A stretch of 64,000 nt of DNA from Tagaea sp. (GTDB lineage: Bacteria > Pseudomonadota > Alphaproteobacteria > CACIAM-22H2), in NCBI GenBank assembly GCA_965279565.1, contig OZ257249.1, positions 2,897,116 to 2,961,115 of the forward strand, in the 5' to 3' direction. Of this stretch, positions 3,151-50,852 are shown in pieces (position 1 is the first letter of the stretch; every line of letters starts with the position of its first letter). The notes below the pieces were generated by a model. That model saw only the letters and a list, made by a program, of their open reading frames with translations, made no database searches and had not been told where the DNA came from. A program made the translations under genes and the position numbers.

Positions 3151-3176
3151 CTGCGAATGATGGCCGCCCTAATTGC

Positions 3177-3337
3177 CCTTGGTTTCCGCTCAATTCCCTT
3201 CGTTGCCGGAAATTGTGGAAACTATCATTGAAATCATTGAATAAGCAGAAGTCTGGGGGACTGGGGGTCGCAGGTTCGAATCCTGTCGCTCCGACCATCA
3301 AAGAAGCCCGCTAAATCAATGATTTAGCGGGCTTCAC
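3177..3337 (+). repeat. repeat family copy A: conserved leader + tRNA 3'-half-like module (…GGGGGTCGCAGGTTCGAATCCTGTCGCTCCGACCA) + 13-bp-stem hairpin GCCCGCTAAATCAaTGATTTAGCGGGC
   Basis: Seen directly. Leader CCTTGGTTTCCGCTCAATTCCCTTCGTTGCCGGAAATTGTGGAAACTATCATTGAAATCATTGAATAAGCAGAAGTCTGGGGGA. T-arm is a 5-bp stem GCAGG/CCTGT with one G-U pair and loop TTCGAAT. Then a 7-nt acceptor strand CGCTCCG, discriminator A, CCA. Lies between the convergent HK and kdpE genes. Confidence 0.8.
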
Positions 3338-3350
3338 GGTTTCGGGATTG

Positions 3351-3520
3351 CCTCTGGTTTCCACGTAGTTTCCATCCGGTTTCCTTTGCTGCCGAAAAGG
3401 AGGGAAACTGACGTTGAAATATTTGAATAAGCAGCAGTCCAAAGGACGGGGATCTTAGGTTCGAATCCTGTCGCGCCGACCGTCAAAAAAGCCCACTGCC
3501 GGGCAACCGGCGCGGGCTTT
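3351..3520 (+). repeat. repeat family copy B, tandem to A and more diverged: leader + GGATCTTAGGTTCGAATCCTGTCGCGCCGACCG + hairpin GCCCACTGCCGGgcaaCCGGCGCGGGC-TTT
   Basis: Same architecture and strand as copy A with an internal insertion in the leader (TTTCCATCCGGTTTCC). Ends 5 nt before the kdpE stop. Confidence 0.7.
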
Positions 3521-3525
3521 GTCGT

Positions 3526-4221
3526 TCAGGTGCCCAATATGAATCTATAGCCCACACCGGGTTCGGTCAGAATGAAGCGTGGCGCGGCAGGGTCGTCTCC
3601 AAGCTTCTCGCGAAGCTGCCGTACATAGACCCGCAGGTACTGCGTATCGGCGACGTGCGCCGGCCCCCAAACGCGCTCGAGGACCATGCGGTGTGTCAGG
3701 ACCTTGCCGCCCGCCTGAGCAAGCAGCTTCAGCAGATCATACTCCTTGGGCGTAAGCTTGATCTCCGCGCCGGCTAGGCGGACGCGGCGCTGCACCAGAT
3801 CGATTTCGAGATCACCGCTGCGGATGATCGGCTCGGCGCCGGATTCTTGGAGTCGGTGCCGGAGGGCTGTGCGCAGGCGCGCGAGAAGTTCCGGCATGCC
3901 GAAGGGCTTGGTGACGTAGTCGTCTGCGCCCTCATCGAGTGCGGCAACCTTCTCGTCTTCACCGGCGCGCACCGACAGCACGATCACCGGTACGGCGGAG
4001 AACTCGCGGATGCGCGTCAACGCCGTGTGCCCGTCCTCGTCCGGCAGGCCGAGATCGAGGAGTACGGCGTCCGGCTTCTCGCGTGCGACGGCAGCAACGC
4101 CTTCGCGGGCGGTCGCGGCCTCGATCACGGTGTCGCCCTCGGCCTCCAGCGCCACGCGTAGCAGTTTGCGCAACTGCGGCTCGTCGTCGATGACCAGGAC
4201 GCGGCGCTTGGATGAGTTCAT
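3526..4221 (-). CDS. kdpE: KdpE, OmpR-family response regulator of the kdp operon
   Basis: MNSSKRRVLVIDDEPQLRKLL...winged-helix C-terminus (LTPKEYDLLKLLAQ...GYRF). The ATGA overlap with the kdpD stop indicates translational coupling. Confidence 0.9.
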   Translation of the reverse strand: MNSSKRRVLVIDDEPQLRKLLRVALEAEGDTVIEAATAREGVAAVAREKPDAVLLDLGLPDEDGHTALTRIREFSAVPVIVLSVRAGEDEKVAALDEGADDYVTKPFGMPELLARLRTALRHRLQESGAEPIIRSGDLEIDLVQRRVRLAGAEIKLTPKEYDLLKLLAQAGGKVLTHRMVLERVWGPAHVADTQYLRVYVRQLREKLGDDPAAPRFILTEPGVGYRFILGT

Positions 4222-6941
4222 CTCGGCTCCGGCCGGGCTTCGTCGGGCTGCGGATCGACCGGCAGGTCGACGATCGCGCGCGTACCGTAGCCGTCGAAGA
4301 TCGGGCTTTCCAGCCGGACCGTCCCGCCGTGCGCCTCGACGAGGCCACGGCAGATCGCAAGCCCCAATCCGGTTCCGGCGATCTGCCGGTCGCCCCAGCG
4401 CCCGTCCTCCCCGCCACGCACGCGATAGAACTTGTCGAAGACGCGCTCGAGATCGGCGGCAGGCACGCCTCGGCCGCGGTCCTCGATGGCGATTCGCAGC
4501 CGCGAGCCGGTTACGGAAGTCGCGACGGAGATTGACGTACCGTCCGGTGAGTATTTGGTCGCATTGTCGAGAAGATTGTAAAGAGCCTGACCGAGCAGTG
4601 TCGGATCGACACGCAGCAGCGGCAAGTTCGGGCTGGCGGATACCGTCACTTCGCGTGCGGGAAGTCGTTTGCGCAGTCGGGCCACGGCGGTACCGACAAG
4701 TTCGCGCACATCCGTCCAGTCGCGCCGAAGTGCAAGGGCACCACCTTCCAGACGCGTCATATCGAGCAGGTTGCCGACGAATCGCGCGAGGCGGTCGGAT
4801 TCCTCGTGGATCGCGTCGAGGAGCTGCCGCCGAGAATGTTCGTCGAGGCTGCTGCCGGTCCGCAGCGTGGAAATGGCCCCGGTGATCGTTGAAAGCGGTG
4901 TGCCGAGATCGTGGCTGATCGAGGAAAGCAGTGCGGCTCGCAGCTTCTCGGATTCGGCGAGCACCTTAGCTTCGCGCATTTCTGCGTCGAGTCGCATGCG
5001 GCCAATTGCGATTGCGGCCTGGTCGGCGAGCGCGTCGAGCAGCCGGCGCGCGTCGGGATCGAGCGACTTGTCCTTCGGCGGTCGGATCCCGAGTACTCCG
5101 ACCGGGCCGGCGGCCGTGCGCATCGGCACATAGAGCCGTTCTGCCGACGGCAGCGTGCCGGAGCCGAGGCCCGCCGCTTCGCCTTTGTCGCGGGCCCAAT
5201 GGGCGGCCGCCCAGTCGCCGGCGGGCAGGTCGTCCTCGGGTGGATAGCCGCCTCGCACGACAAGCCGTTCGTCCTGCGCGAGAAGTACGACGGTGCCTAC
5301 GCCCAGCATCGTCGCAACCTGGTGGGCGACAATCCAGATGAGATCGTCCAGTGCGGCGGCGGCAGCAAGTTTACGCGCAAAGTCGTAGAGGGCCGCGGTC
5401 GTCCGGAAGCGCCGACGTGCGTCTGTCGCCTGCTCGCGAACGCGGCTCGCCTGACTCGACAGCAGGACGGCGACGACGACGAAGATCGCCAGCGCCAGGA
5501 TGTCGCGCGGGTCACCGATCGTCAGCGTCAGGTAGGGCTCGACGAAGAAGAAGTCGAATACCAGTGTGGCCAGCAGCGAGGCATAGAGCGATGGCGACAG
5601 GCCGAAGCGCACTGCCGTGTAGATGATCGACGTGAGCAGCAGGATCGGCTCGACGTTCGGCGTGTCGAACTGCAGGCGAAGGAGCCAGCACAGCCCGGCC
5701 GCGGCGAAAACGGCACCGGTCGCCTCGATGAATGGTTGTGGCCCTCGGGCCGCGCGTGCAGCAAGCCGGACACGCAATGCGGCGGTGAGCCGTTCGCGCA
5801 CCGACGGGCCATCCGACGGCACGATATGCACCCCGATGGCATCGTTTGCGCGGATCAGCTCGTGCACGAGAGACCGTCCGAACCATTCGCGCCAGCGCGG
5901 TCGCCGGGTCTTGCCGATGATGATCTGGGTAATGTTCTGGCTGCGCGCGAGATCGAGGATTTCGACGACGACGTCGGACGTGGGGATCACGCGCGCCTCG
6001 CCGCCAAGCCGGTCTGCAAGCTTCAGCGCATCGGCAATGCGCGTCTTTGCGGCCTCGTCGAGGCTGGCGTGGTGCGGGGTCTCGAAATTCACCGCCATCC
6101 ACTTGGCACCGATCTGGTCCGCCAACCGCCGCGCTGCGCGAACGATAGGGGCGGGATCTGGATAAGCCGATATGCAGGCGAGGATGCGCTCGCCCGCCGG
6201 CCACGGCCCCGGAATCGCCTGGCGCAGCATCAGCCCGACCATCTGGTCGTCGACGCGCTCGGCGGTGCGGCGAAGTGCCAGTTCGCGTAAGGCGGTCAGG
6301 TTGCCGGGTCGGAAGAAATGCTCGGCTGCCCGTTCGGCATTGGTGCCCTTGTAGATCTTGCCTTCCTTGAGGCGCTTGATCAGGTCATCCGGCGTGAGAT
6401 CGACGAGTTCGATCGCGTCGGCGCGCTCGAGTACGGAATCCGGCAGCGTCTCCTGCACCCGCACGCCAGTGATTTTCGCGACGATGTCGTTGAGGCTTTC
6501 GAGGTGCTGGACATTCAGCGTCGTCCAGATATCGATGCCGGCGGCAAGCAATTCCTCGACGTCTTGATGGCGCTTGGGGTGACGCGATCCCGGCGCGTTC
6601 GTATGAGCGAGTTCGTCGACGAGCAGCAGGCCCGGCCGGCGGGAGAGGGCGGCGTCGATATCGAATTCTTCGATTTCGTGCCCGCGATGCGCGAGTCTGC
6701 GACGGGCCAGGACCTCGAATCCGTCGAGCTTGCCAGCGGTGGCGTCACGACCATGCGTTTCGATGATGCCGGCGACGACATCGATCCCCTCGGCTTTGCG
6801 CGCCTGTGCTGCTTCAAGCATCGCATAGGTCTTGCCCACGCCGGGGGCTGCACCCAGGAACACCTTCAGGCGGCCGGCCCCTTCGGACTTGGCGACCGCC
6901 AGCAGCGCATTCGGATCCGGGCGGTCGTCGGCGTTGGTCAT
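4218..6941 (-). CDS. kdpD: KdpD sensor histidine kinase (KdpD N-terminal domain, Usp, TM, GAF-like, HisKA/HATPase)
   Basis: 907 aa with a Walker-like N-terminal KdpD domain (FLGAAPGVGKTYAML), H-box ISHDLGTPLS and HATPase motifs (GTGLGLAICRGLVEAHGG). Confidence 0.9.
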   Translation of the reverse strand: MTNADDRPDPNALLAVAKSEGAGRLKVFLGAAPGVGKTYAMLEAAQARKAEGIDVVAGIIETHGRDATAGKLDGFEVLARRRLAHRGHEIEEFDIDAALSRRPGLLLVDELAHTNAPGSRHPKRHQDVEELLAAGIDIWTTLNVQHLESLNDIVAKITGVRVQETLPDSVLERADAIELVDLTPDDLIKRLKEGKIYKGTNAERAAEHFFRPGNLTALRELALRRTAERVDDQMVGLMLRQAIPGPWPAGERILACISAYPDPAPIVRAARRLADQIGAKWMAVNFETPHHASLDEAAKTRIADALKLADRLGGEARVIPTSDVVVEILDLARSQNITQIIIGKTRRPRWREWFGRSLVHELIRANDAIGVHIVPSDGPSVRERLTAALRVRLAARAARGPQPFIEATGAVFAAAGLCWLLRLQFDTPNVEPILLLTSIIYTAVRFGLSPSLYASLLATLVFDFFFVEPYLTLTIGDPRDILALAIFVVVAVLLSSQASRVREQATDARRRFRTTAALYDFARKLAAAAALDDLIWIVAHQVATMLGVGTVVLLAQDERLVVRGGYPPEDDLPAGDWAAAHWARDKGEAAGLGSGTLPSAERLYVPMRTAAGPVGVLGIRPPKDKSLDPDARRLLDALADQAAIAIGRMRLDAEMREAKVLAESEKLRAALLSSISHDLGTPLSTITGAISTLRTGSSLDEHSRRQLLDAIHEESDRLARFVGNLLDMTRLEGGALALRRDWTDVRELVGTAVARLRKRLPAREVTVSASPNLPLLRVDPTLLGQALYNLLDNATKYSPDGTSISVATSVTGSRLRIAIEDRGRGVPAADLERVFDKFYRVRGGEDGRWGDRQIAGTGLGLAICRGLVEAHGGTVRLESPIFDGYGTRAIVDLPVDPQPDEARPEPR

Positions 6942-6953
6942 ACGGACTTTCGG

Positions 6954-7514
6954 CTAGGGCCGCAGTGCATCGAGGGCGAGATTGAGGCCGAGAACATCGA
7001 CCCGTGGCTGGCCCAGTATGCCGAGTTCGCGGCCGTGCGTGAACTGCGCCAAAAGATTCCGGACCCGGTCCTCCGGGACCCCGCGTGCGGCGGCAACCCG
7101 CGCCACCTGGCGCTCGGCATTTGCGGGCGAGATATGCGGGTCGAGGCCGGATGCGGATGCCAGCACGGCATCCGCGGGGATCGGCTTCGGCCCCCCAAGC
7201 GTTTCGACGTCGCTCTTCACGCGCTCGACAAGCTTGGCCGACGTTGGCCCGAGATTGGCACCGCCAGAAGAGGTCGCGTCATATCCGGCGCTGCCGGCGG
7301 CGGAGGGCCGACCGTGGAAATATCGGTCGCTGGCGAAACTCTGGCCGATCAGCGCCGATCCGACGACACGGCCGTCGCGTTCGATCAGCGAGCCGTTGGC
7401 GGCATGGCTGAACGCGATCTGGCCGATTCCGGTGACTAGCAGCGGATAAAGCACGCCGCAAATCACCGAAAACACGATCAGCAGAACGAAGGCGGGGCGG
7501 ATATGGACGTACAT
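6954..7514 (-). CDS. kdpC: KdpC, K+-transporting ATPase subunit C
   Basis: Real protein starts at the internal ATG (MYVHIRPAFVLLIVFSVICGVLYPLLVTGIGQ...), 186 aa. The listed 357-aa ORF carries an Arg-rich spurious N-terminal extension that overlaps kdpB. Confidence 0.85.
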   Translation of the reverse strand: MYVHIRPAFVLLIVFSVICGVLYPLLVTGIGQIAFSHAANGSLIERDGRVVGSALIGQSFASDRYFHGRPSAAGSAGYDATSSGGANLGPTSAKLVERVKSDVETLGGPKPIPADAVLASASGLDPHISPANAERQVARVAAARGVPEDRVRNLLAQFTHGRELGILGQPRVDVLGLNLALDALRP

Positions 7515-7522
7515 GGCTAACC

Positions 7523-9562
7523 TCACGCGAGCCCGAGGGCGGAAACGAGAATGTCGACGGCCTTGATGCCAACGAACGGAACGAGGATGCCGCCCAGCCC
7601 GTAGACGAGCAGGTGACGGCGCAGAAGTTCGCCGGCCGGCATCGGGCGATAGGCGATGCCCTTCAGCGCCAGCGGGATCAGCGCCACGATGATCAGGGCA
7701 TTGAAGATCACTGCCGACAGGATGGCGCTTTGCGGCGTGGCCAACCCCATGACATTGAGTGCGCCGAGCTGCGGGTAGGCGGCGACAAACAGGGCCGGGA
7801 TGATCGCGAAGTATTTCGCGACGTCGTTGGCGATCGAGAACGTCGTCAGCGCGCCGCGCGTCATGAGGAGCTGCTTGCCGATGCCGACGACCTCGATCAG
7901 CTTGGTCGGGTTCGAATCGAGATCGACCATGTTGCCGGCCTCGCGCGCAGCCTGCGTGCCGGTCTGCATGGCAAGCCCGACATCGGCCTGGGCAAGGGCA
8001 GGCGCGTCGTTCGTACCGTCGCCGCACATCGCCACCAGCCGGCCCTTGGCTTGTTCGGCGCGGATGAAGGCGAGCTTGTCTTCGGGCGTCGCCTCTGCGA
8101 TGAAATCGTCTACGCCAGCCTCGGCGGCGATGGCCGCGGCTGTCAGCTTGTTGTCGCCAGTGACCATCACCGTGCGCACGCCCATCCGGCGAAGCTCGGC
8201 AAAGCGCTCGCGGATCCCGGCTTTGACGATGTCCTTCAGGTAGATGATGCCGAGGAGACGGGTACCTGTGGTACCGGTCTCTGCGACAGCCAGCGGCGTG
8301 CCGCCGCTGCGCGCGATGCGTTCGACTTGTTCAGCCACCGCCGTCGGCAGCGGGACGCCCGCGAACCGCACGATTGAATCGACGGCCCCCTTGCGGATAC
8401 GTCGCCCCGGCAGGTCGACACCGGAAATCCTGGTCTGCGCAGTGAAAGGGACGAACACGGCCGCAGGGTCGCCGGCGGGGGCCGCTCCAAGCCGTTCCTG
8501 GGCGAGACGGACGATCGAGCGTCCTTCGGGCGTCTCGTCGGCGAGCGAAGCGAGGAGGGCCGCCTCGGCGAGTTCCCGCTCCGATACGCCCAGTGCGGGC
8601 GCGAAAGCCGTCGCCATGCGATCGCCCAGCGTGATCGTCCCGGTCTTGTCGAGCAGCAGCACATCGACGTCGCCGGCCGCTTCGACCGCGCGGCCCGACG
8701 TCGCCAGCACGTTGAACTTCACCAGCCGGTCCATGCCAGCTATCCCAATCGCCGAGAGCAGACCGCCGATGGTGGTAGGGATCAACGTCACGAACAGCGC
8801 GACCAGAACCGTCAACGACAGGGCAACTCCGGCGTAGGCCGCGAATGCTGGCAGGGTCGCGACGACCACAACGAAGATCAACGACATCCCGGCGAGAAGA
8901 ATGTTCAGCGCGATCTCGTTGGGCGTCTTCTGCCGAGAGGCACCCTCGACGAGGGCAATCATCCGGTCGAGGAAGCTCGATCCCTGTGCTGCCGTGATCT
9001 TGATCCTGATCCAGTCCGACAGGACGACCGTGCCGCCGGTGACGGCCGACCGGTCGCCTCCCGACTCTCGGATGACCGGGGCGGATTCGCCGGTGATGGC
9101 GCTTTCATTGACCGACGCGATGCCTTCGACGACGGAGCCGTCGCCCGGGATCGTGTCGCCCGCCTCGACCATGACGACGTCGCCAACCTCTAGCTCGGTC
9201 GCGGACACCTTCTCGTATATGTCGCCGGGGCCGTAGACGATCCGCTTGGCCCAGGTCTCGGTCTTCACCTTGCGCAGCGCGTCGGCCTGCGCCTTGCCGC
9301 GCCCTTCGGCGACGGCTTCGGCGAAATTGGCGAACAGGACGGTGAACCAAAGCCATGCCGCGATCTGGCCAGAGAATCCCGCCGAGTGATCGCCGGCGAG
9401 ATCCCGGACGAAGGTGAGGGTTGCGACGCCAGCAACCACGGCGGTTACGAAGATGACCGGATTGCGGACGAGGCCGCGCGGATCGAGCTTGGCGAAGGCC
9501 GCACGGGCGGCCGGCAGCAGGATCGCGGGGTCGAAAAGCGAGATTTCCTTGGCGCGTGCCAT
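7523..9562 (-). CDS. kdpB: KdpB, P-type ATPase catalytic subunit
   Basis: 679 aa with phosphorylation motif DKTGTIT, plus TGDN and [10 protein letters not shown] motifs. Confidence 0.95.
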
Positions 9563-9586
9563 GGTCGTTGTTCCTTTTCTGCGCGA

Positions 9587-11296
9587 TCAGAAGGTCTGGC
9601 CGGCGAGCATCGCGAAATGCTCGACGATCGGACCGAGAGCGAGGGCCGGGAAGAAGCTGAGGCCACCGACGACTAGGATTGTGCCGGCAAGCAGCACGAC
9701 GAACAGCGGGCCATCAGTCGGGAAGGTGCCATCGGAGGCAGGCACGCGCTTCTTGGCAGCAAGCGCGCCAGCGAGTGCGAGCACCGGCACGATGATTGCG
9801 AAGCGTCCGACCAGCATCGCGATCCCGAGCGTGGTGTCCCAGAACGGCACGCTGGCGGTGAGCCCGGCAAAGGCCGAGCCGTTGTTGCCTACGGCCGACG
9901 TGTAGGCATAGAGCGCCTCGGAAAAGCCGTGCGGACCGTCGTTGTTGAGCCCGCCGAGAGCGCCCGGCCAGAGCAGGGCAAGGGCCGTGAACGCCAGGAT
10001 GAAGACCGGTGGCACAAGTACGACGAGGCTGGCAAGCTTGACCTCGCGCGCCTCGATCTTCTTGCCGAGATACTCGGGCGTACGCCCGACCATCAGGCCG
10101 GCAACGAACACTGCGATCACTGCATAGACCAACATGCCGTACAACCCCGAGCCCACGCCGCCGAACACGATCTCGCCAAGCTGGATCATGAACATCGGCA
10201 CGAGGCCACCGAGCGGCGTGAAGCTGTCATGCATTGCATTGACTGAGCCGTTGGAGGCGGCAGTGGTGACTACGGCCCAGATAGCCGACCAGGCAATGCC
10301 GAAGCGGGCTTCCTTGCCTTCCATGTTGCCGTCGGCAGGGTCGAGGCCAAGTGCGATCAGGATCGGGTTGCCGGCAGCCTCCGCGGCGTAGCAGGCGGCA
10401 AGCCCTACAAGCAGCAGCACAGTCATAGTTGCGAGCAGGACGGTTCCCTGGCGCGATGCGCCGACCATCCGGGCGAACGTCACGGTGAGTGCGGCGGGGA
10501 TAGCCAGAATCGCCCATAACGAAAGCAGGTTCGTCCATCCGTTCGGATTTTCGAATGGGTGGGCGGAGTTGGCATTGAAGAAGCCACCGCCGTTGGTGCC
10601 GAGCTGCTTGATCGCAATCTGCGAGGCGACAGGGCCTAGCGCGATCGACTGCGAGGCGCCTTCGAGCGTTGTCGCCTCGACATTGGCCGAAAAGCTCTGT
10701 GGAATGCCGAGTGCGACGAAAGAGATCGCCAGAGCAAGTGACAATGGCAGCAAGACATAGAGGGTTCCGCGTGTCAGGTCCGCCCAGAAATTTCCCACCC
10801 CGCGTGATTCAATGCGCGCAAAGCCGCGCGTCAAAGCCAGTGCCAACGCGATGCCCGTCGCCGCAGATACGAAGTTCTGCGTCGCGAGACCGAACATCTG
10901 CGACAGATGGCTCATCGTCGATTCGCCGCCATAAGACTGCCAATTCGTGTTGGTGACGAAGCTGACCGCCGTATTGAATGCCAAATGCGGGTCGAGCGCG
11001 GCAAGGTCGTTCGGGTTGAGCGGCAAAACGCCCTGCAGGCGAAGCAGCCCATAGAGTAGAACGAAACCGGCTGCATTGAAGGCGAGCATCGCACCGACAT
11101 AGCCGAGCCATCCCTGGTCGCGAGTCGCGTCGATGCCGGCGAACCGGTAGAGATCCACCTCGATGCGTCCGAGGAGCGGGGACAAGAACGTCCGCTCGCC
11201 GGCGAAAACGCGCGCCATATAGACGCCGAGAGGGACAGCACTGGCGAGAACCAGGCCGACGACAAGCAAGATCTGTAGCCATCCCATCGGGGTCAT
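9587..11296 (-). CDS. kdpA: KdpA, K+-translocating subunit
   Basis: 569 aa polytopic membrane protein ([31 protein letters not shown]...). Canonical position between kdpF and kdpB. Confidence 0.95.
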
Positions 11297-11324
11297 GGCG
11301 GGTACTCCGGTTCTCTCGTGTGTT

Positions 11325-11411
11325 TCAGAATTTTTCGGGCGCCAGCAGGGCGACCGCGAGATAGGCGAAAAGGGCGATTGCGACGGCGCTGCCCAGGATC
11401 AGTTCGAACAT
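11325..11411 (-). CDS. kdpF: KdpF, small hydrophobic subunit (28 aa: [28 protein letters not shown])
   Basis: Not in the ORF track. Found by reading the minus strand immediately upstream of kdpA. A single TM peptide ending 29 nt before the kdpA start. Confidence 0.7.
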
Positions 11412-11421
11412 CGGGGCGCCC

Positions 11422-11505
11422 TCACAGCCGCGTGCAGGCGCGCGCGAACAGTGCCATCGCGGCGAACAGTCCACTTCCGAGTACCAAATAGAGAAGGTCT
11501 TCCAT
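11422..11505 (-). CDS. candidate 27-aa hydrophobic leader or small membrane peptide upstream of kdpF (MEDLLYLVLGSGLFAAMALFARACTRL)
   Basis: Not in the ORF track. Strong SD (GGAGGCGGAC-ATG). Stop lies 10 nt before the kdpF ATG. Confidence 0.35.
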   Translation of the reverse strand: MEDLLYLVLGSGLFAAMALFARACTRL

Positions 11506-11610
11506 GTCCGCCTCCAGCGTTGAGGTCGGGACTATGGATCCGGCTGGCGTAGAGGTTCGATGCGGAACTCGGGATCGAGGCGTAAGGATTCTATAAGGGC
11601 AGTTCGTTTT

Positions 11611-11772
11611 CCTTGGTTTCCGCTCATTTCCCTTCGTTGCCGAAAATTATGGAAACCGTCGTTGAAATCATTGAATAAATAGAAGTTTGGGAGACTGGGG
11701 GTCGCAGGTTCGAATCCTGTCGCTCCGGCCATCAAAGAAGCCCGCCGATCGGAACGCCGGTCGGCGGGCTTC
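11611..11772 (+). repeat. repeat family copy C: leader + GGGGGTCGCAGGTTCGAATCCTGTCGCTCCGGCCA + hairpin GCCCGCCGATCGGaacgCCGGTCGGCGGGC
   Basis: Roughly 90% identical to copy A over about 135 nt by eye. Sits between the kdp promoter region and the stop of the threonine-aldolase-family gene. Confidence 0.8.
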
Positions 11773-11792
11773 GAAGTCTTCGATGAAAATCT

Positions 11793-12839
11793 TCAAACGA
11801 TATTCGAGTCTAACTCGACGAGCGTCCTGGCGACATCCGCGGGTGATTTTCCAAGAAGCGTAGGGTTCGCGCGTATCAGAACACGATCTCCATCGACGTC
11901 CCCAAGCACTATGCCGGATTCCCGGGCTTTCACCTTGAAGGTCGCGACGCCGGACTTCGGTTTCAGCCAGACGCAGTTTGTCGGGGCATCTCCCACGGGG
12001 ATCAATGTCGGGCCATCTGTCATCGAGAGCGACTGCGCGAACGCATCGCGCCATTCGAGGCTGCGTTTCCAGTCCGGTTCGAGCCGGTCGATTTCCGCCA
12101 GCACGACGGCGGCGATCGGCCAGAGTTGGGGCAGCGCGCCCCCGTGGCGGCGGCGATCATGTTCGACTCCGTCGAGCAGCTCGATCGGTCCCGCGAGGAC
12201 GGCGCCGAAGGGCAGACCGAACATTTTCCAAAGCGACAGGTAGATCGTGTCGTAGTCGGCGGAAAATTCTGCCATCGACCTGCTGGCTGCCGCTGCGGCG
12301 ATCGGAAGGCGTGCGCCGTCCAAATGCAGGCCGATCCCGAGCTGGTGCGCCGCCGCGATCGTGTCGGCGAGGAGATCGGCCGGGAATGCCTCGTTCCGGC
12401 GGCGACGGACAGGCGTTTCGATGCATATCGCGCCCAGCGACTGGGCGACCTTGCCGGTTCGGGCGCTCGCGGCGGCATCGCGCACCGCCCGGCCCGAGAA
12501 GCCCGCCCCGGTGGGCGTCGCCGCGACAACGGTCAAGCCCTTAACGGCCGCAAGCGAATCGCCCGTGTCGTTCATTACGTGGCTGTCGGGATGCACAAGA
12601 ACGCGGCGTGCACGCGGTCCGCATAGCCGGTCGAGTGCGATCATGTTCGCGAGTGTCCCGGTCGGAAAGAGGACGGCGCGCGCCTTGCCGAGGAGTTTTG
12701 CGAGCGCGGCTTCGCATTCGCGCACGAGCGGCCCCTCGCCGTAGCTGTCGGGTGCCGCAACGCGGTCGAGTGCCGCCGCCAGCCGCTGCGCGAAGCTCGT
12801 ATCGGCATAGGCGCCGTCGACGTCGAGATGGATTGCCAT
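11793..12839 (-). CDS. threonine aldolase / beta-eliminating lyase family PLP-dependent enzyme
   Basis: Real start is the internal ATG (MAIHLDVDGAYADTSF...), 348 aa, with PTGTLANMIALD and SLWKMFGLPFGAV motifs. The listed 958-aa ORF upstream of this is Arg-rich out-of-frame noise. Confidence 0.75.
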   Translation of the reverse strand: MAIHLDVDGAYADTSFAQRLAAALDRVAAPDSYGEGPLVRECEAALAKLLGKARAVLFPTGTLANMIALDRLCGPRARRVLVHPDSHVMNDTGDSLAAVKGLTVVAATPTGAGFSGRAVRDAAASARTGKVAQSLGAICIETPVRRRRNEAFPADLLADTIAAAHQLGIGLHLDGARLPIAAAAASRSMAEFSADYDTIYLSLWKMFGLPFGAVLAGPIELLDGVEHDRRRHGGALPQLWPIAAVVLAEIDRLEPDWKRSLEWRDAFAQSLSMTDGPTLIPVGDAPTNCVWLKPKSGVATFKVKARESGIVLGDVDGDRVLIRANPTLLGKSPADVARTLVELDSNIV

Positions 12840-21453: not shown

Positions 21454-22998
21454 TTACTTGATCTCCGTCGCTATGAAGCGGTCAAATCCGAAAGGCGTGA
21501 CGGACGCGTTAGTCACGTTGGGCTTGATGAGCGCTACGTTCGCCGGCATGGGAAGGGGGGCCGCTCCTATGTCTTCGATATAGACCATCTCGGCCTGCCG
21601 GTAGAGCGCGAAGCGCTTCGTGTTGTCGACGGTGCCGACGGCTTCGTCGATAAGCGCATCGAACTTGGCATTGCTCCAGCGTCCCCGGTTATACGGGCTC
21701 TTCGAGTGCCACATCTGCTGGAGATAGTACATCGCGTCCGGATAGCCCGACGTCCAGCCCCAGGGGAAGAACGCGATCTCGCCGGCGTTCATCCCGCGGA
21801 TGAAGGTGGCGCGCTCCGCCACGTTGACGTTGACCTGCATGCCCAGCGTGCGGTTCAGCTCGTTGGCATAGTAGGTGAGCTCGTCCTTGAAGACGGCCGT
21901 GCAGGTGATGTCGATCGGCGGCAGGCCCCGGCCGCCCGGATATCCTGCCTCGGCAAGCAGCTTCTTGGCGCCTTCCGGATCGTATTTCGGCTTGGGCAGG
22001 TCGGCGAAATAGCCGGCCACGCCCGGCGTCGTGACGCCATGGAGCTGGAAGGCGGCGTTGTCGTAGAAGCCGCGGATCATCGCGTCGCGGTTGATCGCCA
22101 TCGAGATCGCCTCGCGCACGCGCTTGTCCTTGAACGGCGCGTAGACGTTGGCGTTCATGCCGAGATAGCGCGACTGCGCGCGCGGCACGACATGGCGCTC
22201 CTTCTGCTTGCTGGCGTCGCGCATCACGCGGCGCAACGTGTTCTCCTGCACGTCGAGAAAGTCCAGCTCGCCGGCTTCGTACTGCGACAGGGCCGTGTCG
22301 CCGCTGGGGATGACGAGGAAGCGGATCCCGTCGATCTTGGGCGAACCGGCCCAGTACGCCTTGTTCGCCTCGATCTCGACATGCACGCCGCGGCGCCATT
22401 CCTTGAACTTGTAGGGGCCGGTGCCGGCCGAGACACTGCGGACCCAGTCCACGCCTTTTTCAGCGACGATACCGGAATCCATGAACCAGATCGGATAGAT
22501 CGGGAACAGCACGTCGGGCTTCGTGAAGCGCACTTCGATCGTGTGGTCGTCGACGATCTTGATGCCGGAAAGCTCCTTGGTCGTCCCGGCCTTGACGGCG
22601 GCGACCCCCACGATGTTGGCGACGTAGCCCGCACCCAGGCCCGCCTTGGTGTCGGGGGCGGCGAGCTGCTCCATCGTGTACTTCACGTCCTTGGCCGTGA
22701 AGGTCCGGCCGCTATGGAACTTGACGTTCTTGCGCAGATTGAATCGGAACCCGTGCTCGCCCGGCAGCGCGGTCCAGGATTCGGCCAGCACGTTGATGAT
22801 CTTGCCGTCCGGCGTGTAGTCCGTGAAACCTTCATAGACGTTGCGGATGACGCGGCCGGCGATGATCTCGGAATAGGTGATCGGATCCATCATTGCCGGA
22901 TCGCCGGTGACGTTGATCCGGAGCGTCTTCGCGTCGACCGGGGTCGCCAGGGCCAGGGCCGCCAGCATGACGGCAAACGCGCTGCTGATGTACTTCAT
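21454..22998 (-). CDS. ABC transporter substrate-binding protein, family 5 (peptide/opine/nickel type)
   Basis: 514 aa with a signal peptide (MKYISSAFAVMLAALALATPVDA) and SBP_bac_5 architecture. Confidence 0.85.
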   Translation of the reverse strand: MKYISSAFAVMLAALALATPVDAKTLRINVTGDPAMMDPITYSEIIAGRVIRNVYEGFTDYTPDGKIINVLAESWTALPGEHGFRFNLRKNVKFHSGRTFTAKDVKYTMEQLAAPDTKAGLGAGYVANIVGVAAVKAGTTKELSGIKIVDDHTIEVRFTKPDVLFPIYPIWFMDSGIVAEKGVDWVRSVSAGTGPYKFKEWRRGVHVEIEANKAYWAGSPKIDGIRFLVIPSGDTALSQYEAGELDFLDVQENTLRRVMRDASKQKERHVVPRAQSRYLGMNANVYAPFKDKRVREAISMAINRDAMIRGFYDNAAFQLHGVTTPGVAGYFADLPKPKYDPEGAKKLLAEAGYPGGRGLPPIDITCTAVFKDELTYYANELNRTLGMQVNVNVAERATFIRGMNAGEIAFFPWGWTSGYPDAMYYLQQMWHSKSPYNRGRWSNAKFDALIDEAVGTVDNTKRFALYRQAEMVYIEDIGAAPLPMPANVALIKPNVTNASVTPFGFDRFIATEIK

Positions 22999-25190: not shown

Positions 25191-25625
25191 TCCAGTCGCA
25201 AGGCCATTCTGGCGCTACCTGTCCGCTGACATTCAGGTGGATGGAGGGAGAGAGCTTCCCCCCGTTCCGGGTGGGATTCAATAACTTAAGCGCTTCGGTG
25301 CCTCCGTCGTCGACCTAACCGACACGCCCCCCGCGACGCCGCTGATCGGGCGAGGCCCGCACGTCAATCTCCATCACAATCTCGTGCACGCCGTTCAGGG
25401 CGGCGATGTCGATCTTACGGCGTCGATGGTGGAATGCTCGTGACGGCCGACATTCACGAACTGATCGCCCGTATACATTCGATCGTGCCGGGGCTTCTGT
25501 CGCGCCGCGCATCCTATCTGGCGTCGGACGACAGGATACCGTCGGTATGCACATCGGTATGTACAACGGTGGCTTGACCTTCTTGCTGGCATTTCGATGG
25601 CACGGCTCTCGGAGTGTATTCATTC

Positions 25626-25760
25626 CCCTTGGTTTCCACTCCTTTCCCTTCGTTGCCGGAAATTGTGGAAACCGCCATTGAAATCATTGAACTTCTGGAA
25701 ACCGGGGGCGACTGGGGGTTGCAGGTTCGAATCCTGACGCTCAGACCGTCAAAGAAGTCC
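25626..25760 (+). repeat. repeat family copy D: leader + GGGGGTTGCAGGTTCGAATCCTGACGCTCAGACCG
   Basis: Leader about 85-90% identical to copies A and C by eye (CCTTGGTTTCCACTCCTTTCCCTTCGTTGCCGGAAATTGTGGAAACCGCCATTGAAATCATTGAA...). Followed 30 nt later by a distinct tRNA 3'-end fragment. Confidence 0.75.
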
Positions 25761-25791
25761 GCCGCCGGGTGACCGTTCGGTGAGCATTGCC

Positions 25792-25820
25792 GTAGGTTCG
25801 AGCCCTACGGCGCCCACCAT
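25792..25820 (+). other. tRNA 3'-end fragment with intact CCA (GTAGGTTCGAGCCCTAC-GGCGCCC-A-CCA), different from the repeat-family tRNA module
   Basis: Perfect 5-bp T-stem and 7-nt loop, 7-nt acceptor strand, discriminator and CCA. No D-arm or anticodon arm upstream, so not a full tRNA. Typical of an att-site scar. Confidence 0.5.
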
Positions 25821-35424: not shown

Positions 35425-35665
35425 CGATGTTCCTTGATTGCCTTTGGGGCGCTGGCGAGTAGCCACAAAGGCATTCGACGGCTTCGAATCCTGCACCCTT
35501 CCCCGTCGACTTCCAAATCTCGCTTGGGGCTCAATGAGGCTATTTGGGGTGGCGATGACGGAAAGCCGTTGTGGAAGGGATGGGCTCGCCATCCGATGGA
35601 GCTTCAATGCTCTTGGTTTCCACTCGCTTCCCTTAAATGCCTAAAATCGTCGAATTTCCGCCGCA
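35425..35665 (+). repeat. degenerate remnants of the repeat family: a leader-like start GTTCCTTGATTGCC with T-arm-like CGACGGCTTCGAATCCTGCACCC (35476-35498), and a 5'-only leader copy E (about 35610-35665: CTCTTGGTTTCCACTCGCTTCCCTTAAATGCC...)
   Basis: Shares the TTGGTTTCCACTC...TTCCCTT leader start with copies A-D, but the tRNA-like module is missing or decayed. Sits between btaB and the SDR genes. Confidence 0.45.
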
Positions 35666-50367: not shown

Positions 50368-50490
50368 CGGTTCCTTGATTTCCACTCAGTTCGTTCAAAT
50401 GCGAGAAACGGTAGAAATGCCGTTGAAATCACTGAATAATTATCAGTTTTGAGGGCTGGGGGCGTAGATTCGGATCCTGTCGCTCCGACC
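50368..50490 (+). repeat. repeat family copy F (most diverged, AT-rich): GGTTCCTTGATTTCCACTC...CGTTGAAATCACTGAATAATTATCAG...GGCTGGGGGCGTAGATTCGGATCCTGTCGCTCCGACCA
   Basis: Same modular order as copies A-D and the same acceptor-like end CGCTCCGACCA, but a degraded T-arm and no clear downstream hairpin. Confidence 0.6.
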
Positions 50491-50852
50491 AAACAAACAG
50501 GCCAGCCGGTCACAGGATCGACTGGCGTTGTTCGTTCTGCCTTGCGCTACTGCGGGGTCGGCTCATCCCGCACGATCAAGTTCATCGATCGCGACGCGCA
50601 AGCTCGGCATTGCGTCCCTGCGCGAGCCAGTCGGAGACGGGCCGGTTGTGGTGATCGATGCGCGCCATTCGATCTGGAGCCGCATCTTCGTGAACATGCT
50701 GTAGCCCGTCAGGGCAAGGAACGCCGTCGCCAGTGCGGCGAAAGGGCCGAAACCTTTTTTCTCTGACCTGCATGCACAGAACTCGTTGATCAGAGATCTG
50801 ATCGACGGGCTTTTCGAGAAAATTGCATTGCCGTACTCAAAATTCGGAAGGC

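Follow-up and report, generated by a model that had tools for sequence, protein, structure and literature searches.

Repeat units joining a tRNA-Pro 3′ half to a terminator-like hairpin: probable insertion junctions in a Tagaea genome

Introduction

Partial tRNAs scattered through genomic islands have been explained by successive integrations that push older elements inwards (tycheposon preprint, 10.1101/2020.12.28.424599), and the Islander report describes a regenerated target gene together with its displaced fragment (PMC4383910). Here we analyze a 64-kb stretch of contig OZ257249.1 of Tagaea sp. (hereafter, the window), which contains several copies of an approximately 185-nt repeat with a tRNA-like end and a hairpin behind it. 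The original prediction for this DNA held that the hairpin conserves structure but not sequence between copies, and regarded it as the terminator of a transcribed tRNA-like RNA. We propose instead, with moderate confidence, that the repeat units are junctions left by successive site-specific insertions of operon-sized modules at a tRNA-Pro gene.

Structure of the repeat units

The repeat is present as five full units (A, B, C, D and F) and one half-unit (E), and all six lie on the + strand of the window. Each full unit is composed, in order, of a conserved non-tRNA arm of about 100 nt, the 3′ half of a tRNA-Pro(GGG), and a hairpin part, in which a GC-rich stem-loop stands between a short A-rich spacer and some 15 more bases. 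The units, detected by nhmmer and, except for E, by pattern matching, are as follows.

Unit A, 3164-3345, + strand: 5′ arm at about 3172-3249, tRNA-Pro(GGG) 3′ half with CCA end at about 3250-3297, hairpin at 3303-3335 (nhmmer E 6.6e-56).
Unit B, 3349-3531, + strand: decayed copy abutting A, hairpin at 3488-3520.
Unit C, 11597-11781, + strand: 5′ arm, tRNA-Pro 3′ half at about 11687-11731, hairpin at 11737-11772 with one U·G wobble.
Unit D, 25613-25793, + strand: decayed hairpin at 25753-25787.
Half-unit E, 35601-35654, + strand: 5′ arm alone, tRNA part absent (nhmmer E 3.7e-07; repeat family D4).
Unit F, 50371-50540, + strand: most diverged copy, hairpin at 50492-50536.

B, D, F and the half-unit E are decayed copies. 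In each full unit the CCA-like end is followed by TCAAAGAA and then by the GC-rich stem-loop. The motif AAAGAAGCCC occurs eight times in the window at up to one mismatch, against 2.0 expected, and four of these occurrences come directly after units A to D. The repeat family is also present in other Tagaea spp. and in metagenome-assembled genomes (MAGs) of other Rhodospirillales; loci outside the window are given below by L numbers.

In both the window (3164-3531, A and B) and the Tagaea MAG locus L001 (2596-2842), a unit with an A-type hairpin is directly abutted by a second, partial unit, and this doublet may have been inherited as one block. L001 also holds, at 2596-2663, a 5′ arm alone without the tRNA half, as in E, just upstream of a gene that by eye resembles a SorC-type regulator.

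Origin of the tRNA-like end

By sequence comparison, we identified the tRNA-like end as the displaced 3′ half of a tRNA-Pro gene. The sequence CTGGGGG-ACTGG-GGGTC-GCAGG-TTCGAAT-CCTGT-CGCTCCG-A-CCA corresponds to the anticodon loop (GGG), the 3′ strand of the anticodon stem, the variable loop, the T-arm, the 3′ strand of the acceptor, the discriminator and CCA. The piece runs to CCA from the 3′ end of the 5′ strand of the anticodon stem, and the 5′ half is absent. A scan of viral contigs found the 45-nt block CTGGGGGWCTGGGGGTCG..GGTTCGAATCC..CGCTCCGACCA as the 3′ part of a complete tRNA-Pro(ggg) gene called by ARAGORN (L032); the search pattern had six degenerate positions, and A and L032 differ at one of them. 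The same block is located at provirus ends, where the predicted ends of L028, L029, L030 and L031 start a few bases before it. In L028 and L031 the block is followed by a hairpin and then by a convergent Phage_integrase gene, and the integrase of L030 is 93% identical to that of L028. Therefore, in real elements that target tRNA-Pro, an element-supplied tRNA 3′ half precedes a hairpin.

BLAST analysis against plasmids and phages gave matches of unit A to annotated tRNA-Pro genes over query positions 88-139. It also gave a match to Sinorhizobium phage phi3LM21, at a 57-nt 'attachment site in tRNA-Pro(CGG)' that starts at the anticodon stem and is adjoined by a convergent integrase gene. An identity block reaching from the anticodon region to CCA is typical of integrases with their crossover in the anticodon loop.

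The units do not have what a gene for a tRNA, tmRNA or tRNA-like RNA would have, namely a full cloverleaf with both acceptor strands and a promoter. ARAGORN found no tRNA or tmRNA gene in the window, and Rfam gave no match there at the gathering score, with 13-14-bit matches to tRNA and tmRNA 3′ ends below it. No sigma-70-like promoter was found near A, B or C, and units C and D lack a co-directional upstream gene. A tmRNA or two-piece tmRNA was considered and rejected, as there was only a 14-bit 3′-end match and no ARAGORN tmRNA. We also rejected the long variable arm of a class II tRNA, because comparison with real tRNA-Pro genes showed the small hairpin ahead of the T-arm to be what is left of the tRNA-Pro anticodon arm, with the loop CTGGGGG.

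Breakpoints and related genomes

We compared the identity of pairs of units segment by segment, with a background of 0.62.

L005 and L007: left flank 0.97, arm 0.94, core 0.98, hairpin arm 0.64, right flank 0.59.
C and L008b: left flank 0.64, arm 0.71, core 0.90, hairpin arm 0.90, right flank 0.90.
A and L033b: left flank 0.75, arm 0.75, core 0.96, hairpin arm 0.70, right flank 0.58.

L005 and L007 have only the left side in common, as do A and L033b, both of which follow an orthologous kinase gene. C and L008b share only the right side, and the hairpin and right flank of C are orthologous to L008 6806-7999 with 90.7% identity. Breakpoints therefore flank the tRNA core on its left or its right, which exchange within the core would predict. 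The segments between units are variable and bounded by such breakpoints at the repeat, as in attachment-site (att) junctions: a module running from SbmA to a histidine kinase (SbmA..HK) has different neighbours in the window, L033 and L024, and in L021 as well, units border the module between C and D. In L024 (1-3700), from a related genome, this stress module has no units; to its left, a stretch richer in AT contains a tyrosine integrase (DUF6538 and Phage_integrase) and a resolvase.

Units in Tagaea contigs are clustered and co-oriented, at 313, 355 and 373 kb of one contig and at 44, 56 and 63 kb of another, and L033 carries three co-oriented units. In the sister Tagaea sp. contig OZ245864.1 (L053 16190-16266, at about 265.1 kb), an intact tRNA-Pro(CGG) gene is convergent to kdpE, 152 nt from its stop codon, at the position occupied by units A and B in the window. 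Further on, 17 kb downstream, there is a truncated unit in the same orientation, and L054 has a decayed unit after kdpE. The spacer between the intact tRNA gene and kdpE in OZ245864.1 contains a GGTTTCC motif like that of the unit arm, and there is no integrase nearby.

Fragments of other tRNAs pile up beside some units. In the window, one such fragment directly follows D.

Second, different tRNA 3′ fragment, 25788-25819, + strand: T-arm GTAGG TTCGAGC CCTAC, acceptor strand GGCGCCC, discriminator A, CCA.

L033 has additional decayed tandem tRNA fragments at 4490-4560 and 22080-22160, next to hairpins of the third type described below, one of them a second tRNA-Pro-like piece; a further fragment at L033c, with the anticodon loop CTCTTAA, resembles Lys-CTT.

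These patterns bear on a different explanation, that the units belong to a non-autonomous repeat of the repetitive extragenic palindrome or miniature inverted-repeat transposable element type, or to a plain dispersed duplication, spread and shuffled by homologous recombination, with the hairpin kept merely as a bidirectional terminator or insulator and the tRNA-Pro half accidental. The lack of recombinase genes found nearby would agree with this, as would the unit-free SbmA..HK module of L024 and the location of hairpins at the ends of convergent genes with T-rich minus-strand tails. However, the orientation is strictly uniform, with one clustered locus per genome, no terminal inverted repeats are visible in the alignments and there are no target duplications, so that the units do not qualify as members of such a family. 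Moreover, the start of the tRNA block coincides, in tRNA position, with that of annotated or inferred phage attachment sites, and the anticodon-loop region is among the best-conserved parts in an alignment of 22 units. We therefore consider this explanation unlikely.

Hairpins

Folding energies were scored against 200 dinucleotide shuffles. The hairpins quoted in the original prediction lie behind A, B and C as claimed, with energies of -26.0 kcal/mol for A (z -8.97), -22.8 kcal/mol for B (z -4.0) and -35.0 kcal/mol for C (z -7.6). Hairpins also follow the further full units F (-20.1 kcal/mol, z -3.2) and D (-12.7 kcal/mol, z -0.56), so the observation reaches beyond the three copies listed there. 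The hairpin of D is no better than chance, and we call it decayed because of this z-score; A, B, C and F are stable enough for intrinsic terminators, and D is not. The two 16-nt arms of stem A, GAAGCCCGCTAAATCA and TGATTTAGCGGGCTTC, are 100% complementary (16/16 bp). In C, whose arms also have 16 nt, complementarity is 94%, and the lone 'mismatch' is a U·G wobble on the + strand. A and C are the cleanest two short hairpins in the 64 kb, and B is weaker, with one A·C mismatch and a bulge.

Next, pairs were counted in an alignment of 11 hairpins from the window and from copies in related genomes. Standard pairs filled 94.7% of the cells, compared with 24-51% when the 3′ partner was slid, and five of the 16 pairs had changed on both sides; only 0-2 of 500 shuffles reached the observed values. 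The stem-loops are thus under structural constraint, a conclusion that the pairing counts and the shuffle z-scores support, in agreement with the selection on structure that had been suggested. Compensatory changes occur within hairpin types. Between A and L001, AA/TT is replaced by GG/CC (TAAATCA/TGATTTA versus TGGTTCA/TGATCCA), and L016, L019 and L033b have CCGG/CCGG, CTGG/CCAG and CCTCG/CGAGG, respectively. The contrast between A and C that the original prediction had stressed is, however, of another kind. Their distal stems represent two hairpin types that cannot be aligned in register, and therefore the contrast is not column-by-column covariation. For the same reason we rejected covariation in a single register over all hairpins, since the distal stems of A and L001 are out of register with the C type. 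A third, unrelated type is found 17-20 nt further downstream in L007, L011, L033a and L033c. The difference between A and C mostly reflects non-orthologous downstream arms joined at a recombination junction, rather than compensatory drift of one hairpin.

By appearance, the hairpins look like intrinsic terminators. Hairpins B, C and D all lie close to the ends of convergent genes, at roughly 40 nt or less from the stop codon: the distance is 6 nt between B and the stop codon of kdpE, and 21 nt between C and a gene that ends at 11793. These positions fit the suggestion that the hairpins double as bidirectional terminators for convergent genes, and they probably act, or once acted, in both directions. 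The tails after the hairpins on the + strand (TTCACGG, TTTGTCGTT and TTCGAAG) are poor as U-runs; read on the minus strand, the tails are T-richer, with TTCTTTGATGG at A and C and TTTTTTGACGG at B. Of these hairpins, B alone is more stable on the minus strand, where TTTTTT follows it, and it is the only one that a terminator consensus scan flags, on that strand and as the end of the kdp operon. Wobble pairs number 27 on the + strand versus 12, and the + strand fold is more stable in 18 of 25 hairpins; both observations fit an origin as a terminator read in the sense of the tRNA.

The base of the stem is conserved (GCCCGC/GCGGGC) and its tip is variable. Such a pattern might also arise if the hairpin itself were the recombination substrate, a folded attC-like or cruciform site with GCCCGC/GCGGGC as the recognition or crossover point and a distal stem free to vary. 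In the pairs A/C and A/L033b, homology indeed stops inside the stem just past GCCCGC. However, L005 and L007 diverge straight after CCA, ahead of the hairpin, the loci with the third hairpin type (L007, L011, L033a and L033c) carry theirs at a greater distance, and units of L021 have no comparable hairpin. The wobble bias also points to selection at the RNA level. Neither an integron integrase nor R/L core motifs were seen, although no dedicated search for either was made. Taken together, a folded site is very improbable.

The conserved 5′ arm

The approximately 100 nt upstream of the tRNA half have no similarity to tRNA. In the 22-unit alignment, which covers several genera, TTGAAAT is invariant and TTTCC and GGAAA are nearly so. 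An inverted repeat in the arm (GGTTTCCAC/GTGGAAAC) is 88% paired, with four pairs changed on both sides. TTGAAAT and the symmetric inverted repeat suggest protein-binding sites, and by analogy the arm may be protein-binding DNA like the arm-type sites of a phage attachment site (attP). For comparison, direct repeats GCGGACCGTTT flank the core of phi3LM21 on both sides. Readings of the arm as a sigma-70, sigma-54 or ECF promoter, and of TTGAAATCATTGAA as an IHF consensus, gave no convincing match by eye.

We also looked for a free attP form of the unit. A pattern combining the arm and the T-arm found nothing in viral contigs, an arm-only pattern gave only chance coding matches, and BLAST against plasmids and phages matched the tRNA part only. 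Among other pattern matches, L006 and L014 proved to be intron-containing tRNAs, and L009, L010, L013 and L017 were chance matches. In L018 (5605-6262) and L004 (7314-7393), from the unrelated groups Thermodesulfobacteriota and Flavobacterium, a sequence like TTGAAATCATTGAA occurs about 25 nt upstream of a T-arm fragment; this recurrence may be partly circular, because the motif belonged to the search pattern. An integrase-like open reading frame (ORF) lies immediately upstream in L018 (tblastn E 2e-7).

Another explanation, along the lines of the original prediction, is a small RNA gene family. In that case the unit would combine a 5′ stem-loop (GGUUUCCAC...GUGGAAAC) with AUUGAAAUCAUUGAAUAA as a single-stranded stretch and with a 3′ domain that resembles a tRNA and terminates in CCA, and the hairpin would be its own intrinsic terminator. 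The paired arm with its two-sided changes, the invariant TTGAAAT and the preference of hairpin wobble pairs for the + strand would suit this, and a small RNA with a terminator has a similar overall architecture. Yet A, B and C show no promoter-like site, no -35/-10 is conserved upstream of the units, whole-unit folds are like those of shuffles (z -1.06 to +0.67), and no Rfam family matches. The two sides of a unit also differ in evolutionary history, several copies (B, D, F and the half-unit E) have decayed, pieces of other tRNAs accumulate beside the units, and the equivalent site of the sister genome holds an intact tRNA-Pro. A small RNA family is accordingly quite unlikely. Of the predicted intrinsic terminator of a transcribed tRNA-like RNA, then, the terminator-like stem-loops are supported, and the RNA gene is not, given the ARAGORN and Rfam results, the missing promoter and the absent 5′ half.

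Genes between the units

The units separate operon-sized modules, such as the one between B and C.

kdpFABCDE operon, 3526-11413, minus strand: module between B and C, from ORFs; KdpB is 95% identical to P0241.

At the locus of P0241 (L053), Pfam identifies KdpA, E1-E2 ATPase, KdpC, KdpD and a response regulator. The other neighbours of the units are equally ordinary: a hybrid histidine kinase, a module with a lyase, an oxidoreductase and an ABC transporter (C to D), SDR genes, and TctA. According to Pfam, the ORFs flanking the units are metabolic or transport genes.

Elsewhere in the window, at 38.3-47.5 kb, two adjacent paralogous genes form direct repeats spaced 1417-1420 bp apart (42.7-45.3 kb), and another two genes, at 38.4 and 45.4 kb with a spacing of 7025 bp, resemble each other. 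These look like duplicated genes of one operon, and several families there have ABC-transporter homologues.

Proposed mechanism

The anatomy of the units, their tRNA-Pro origin, their common orientation, the breakpoints on both sides of the core and the intact tRNA-Pro at the equivalent site of the sister genome are, in our view, best joined by the reading that the units are junctions from successive site-specific insertions of operon-sized modules at a tRNA-Pro gene. The recombinase, the order of insertion and terminator activity are parts of the mechanism that we postulate as follows. An incoming module would carry the arm, the core and the hairpin arm, and would enter by site-specific recombination at the tRNA-Pro gene. 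Insertion would regenerate the tRNA with the element-borne 3′ half, followed by the element-borne terminator hairpin, and the previous 3′ half would be displaced further into the array, now behind the arm of the incoming module. Repeated rounds would give co-oriented junctions, each resembling a complete attP-like unit, in which an internal junction would consist of the arm of the left module, a tRNA half and the hairpin of the right module. A displaced hairpin could then be reused as the terminator of a neighbouring convergent gene, for example B for the kdp operon. We propose that the hairpin keeps its structure because it is selected, in the + sense, as the terminator of the regenerated tRNA, and that its sequence would differ between units because the downstream arms come from different related modules, with a few real compensatory substitutions in addition. 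If this reading is correct, the hairpin finding is itself ordinary: a terminator travelling with its tRNA half.

Several points weigh against the insertion model. A regular expression for the box II motif, tblastn with four integrases and Pfam on the flanking ORFs found no integrase or recombinase in the 64-kb window or in about 200 kb of loci of the family; tblastn matches at the units, considered as integrase remnants, were merely the reverse translation of the T-arm. ARAGORN found no intact tRNA-Pro within the window, and the intact gene in OZ245864.1 is the CGG isoacceptor, whereas the units of the window are of the GGG type. None of the phages, plasmids and viral contigs searched contained the 5′ arm, so that a free attP form is not known. 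In L035, the TctA flank to the right of unit F adjoins tRNA-Met, not tRNA-Pro. On the + strand, the hairpins are followed by a poor U-tract (TTC or TTTG). Finally, homologous recombination between repeats could give the same breakpoints.

If the units are indeed insertion junctions, this stretch is a variable region seeded by tRNA-Pro that includes the whole kdp potassium-uptake operon, and the units could be used as markers delimiting accessory modules in Tagaea-like genomes. The less ordinary trait is the conservation of a long arm at each junction in several genera, with no integrase found nearby, which raises the question of whether operon cassettes without an integrase are mobilised in trans. 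Carried further, this would mean an active, integron-like platform for gene capture in Tagaea-like Rhodospirillales. Its operon-sized cassettes would lack a recombinase, and each would have one attP-like site of about 185 nt (the TTGAAAT arm with a 9-bp inverted repeat, the tRNA-Pro 3′ half and the terminator hairpin). They would be inserted, excised and reshuffled at tRNA-Pro genes by a trans-acting recombinase encoded elsewhere, and the hairpin would be required for insulating the cassettes transcriptionally. We regard this extension as conceivable but rather doubtful.

Comparison with known systems

The arrays resemble the attC sites and cassette arrays of integrons in having recombination-linked sites in one orientation between cargo without an integrase, and in conserving structure above sequence. 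They differ in that the conserved core is a tRNA half and not a palindrome, the modules are operons of several genes that have promoters of their own, and the base of the stem is GCCCGC/GCGGGC and not a GTTRRRY core. No IntI gene or R''/L''-L'/R' motifs were seen, although no search aimed at them was made; the window yielded no tyrosine recombinase in general searches.

The hairpins share with bidirectional Rho-independent terminators a GC-rich stem of 11-16 bp, a loop of 3-4 nt, an A-rich side and a T-rich side, and a location 6-21 nt past the stop codons of convergent genes. Here, however, the T-tract of the + strand is short and interrupted, and the hairpin comes as part of a repeat, not of one specific gene.

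The closest likeness, in our opinion, is to displaced tRNA-gene fragments marking islands in tRNA genes, tandem accretion included, namely those of the Islander type, the tycheposon islands of Prochlorococcus and tRNA-Pro prophages like phi3LM21. Three differences stand out: no integrase was found in or near any module, and the modules are ordinary operons (kdp, ABC transporters); every junction keeps a well-conserved arm of about 100 nt common to several genera; and the head of the array is not seen in this genome. Of the features of an att junction, the match to the tRNA 3′ part from the anticodon region is present, and no integrase gene was found within the island. In common with these islands, the 3′ tRNA half is in direct orientation and extends from the anticodon stem-loop to CCA, the cargo between fragments is variable, several fragments, some from different tRNAs, accumulate, and the integrating element brings a new 3′ half and then a hairpin. 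This kind of junction, at a tRNA-gene island and with its own terminator, is already known, and the units described here are an unusually tidy example of it.

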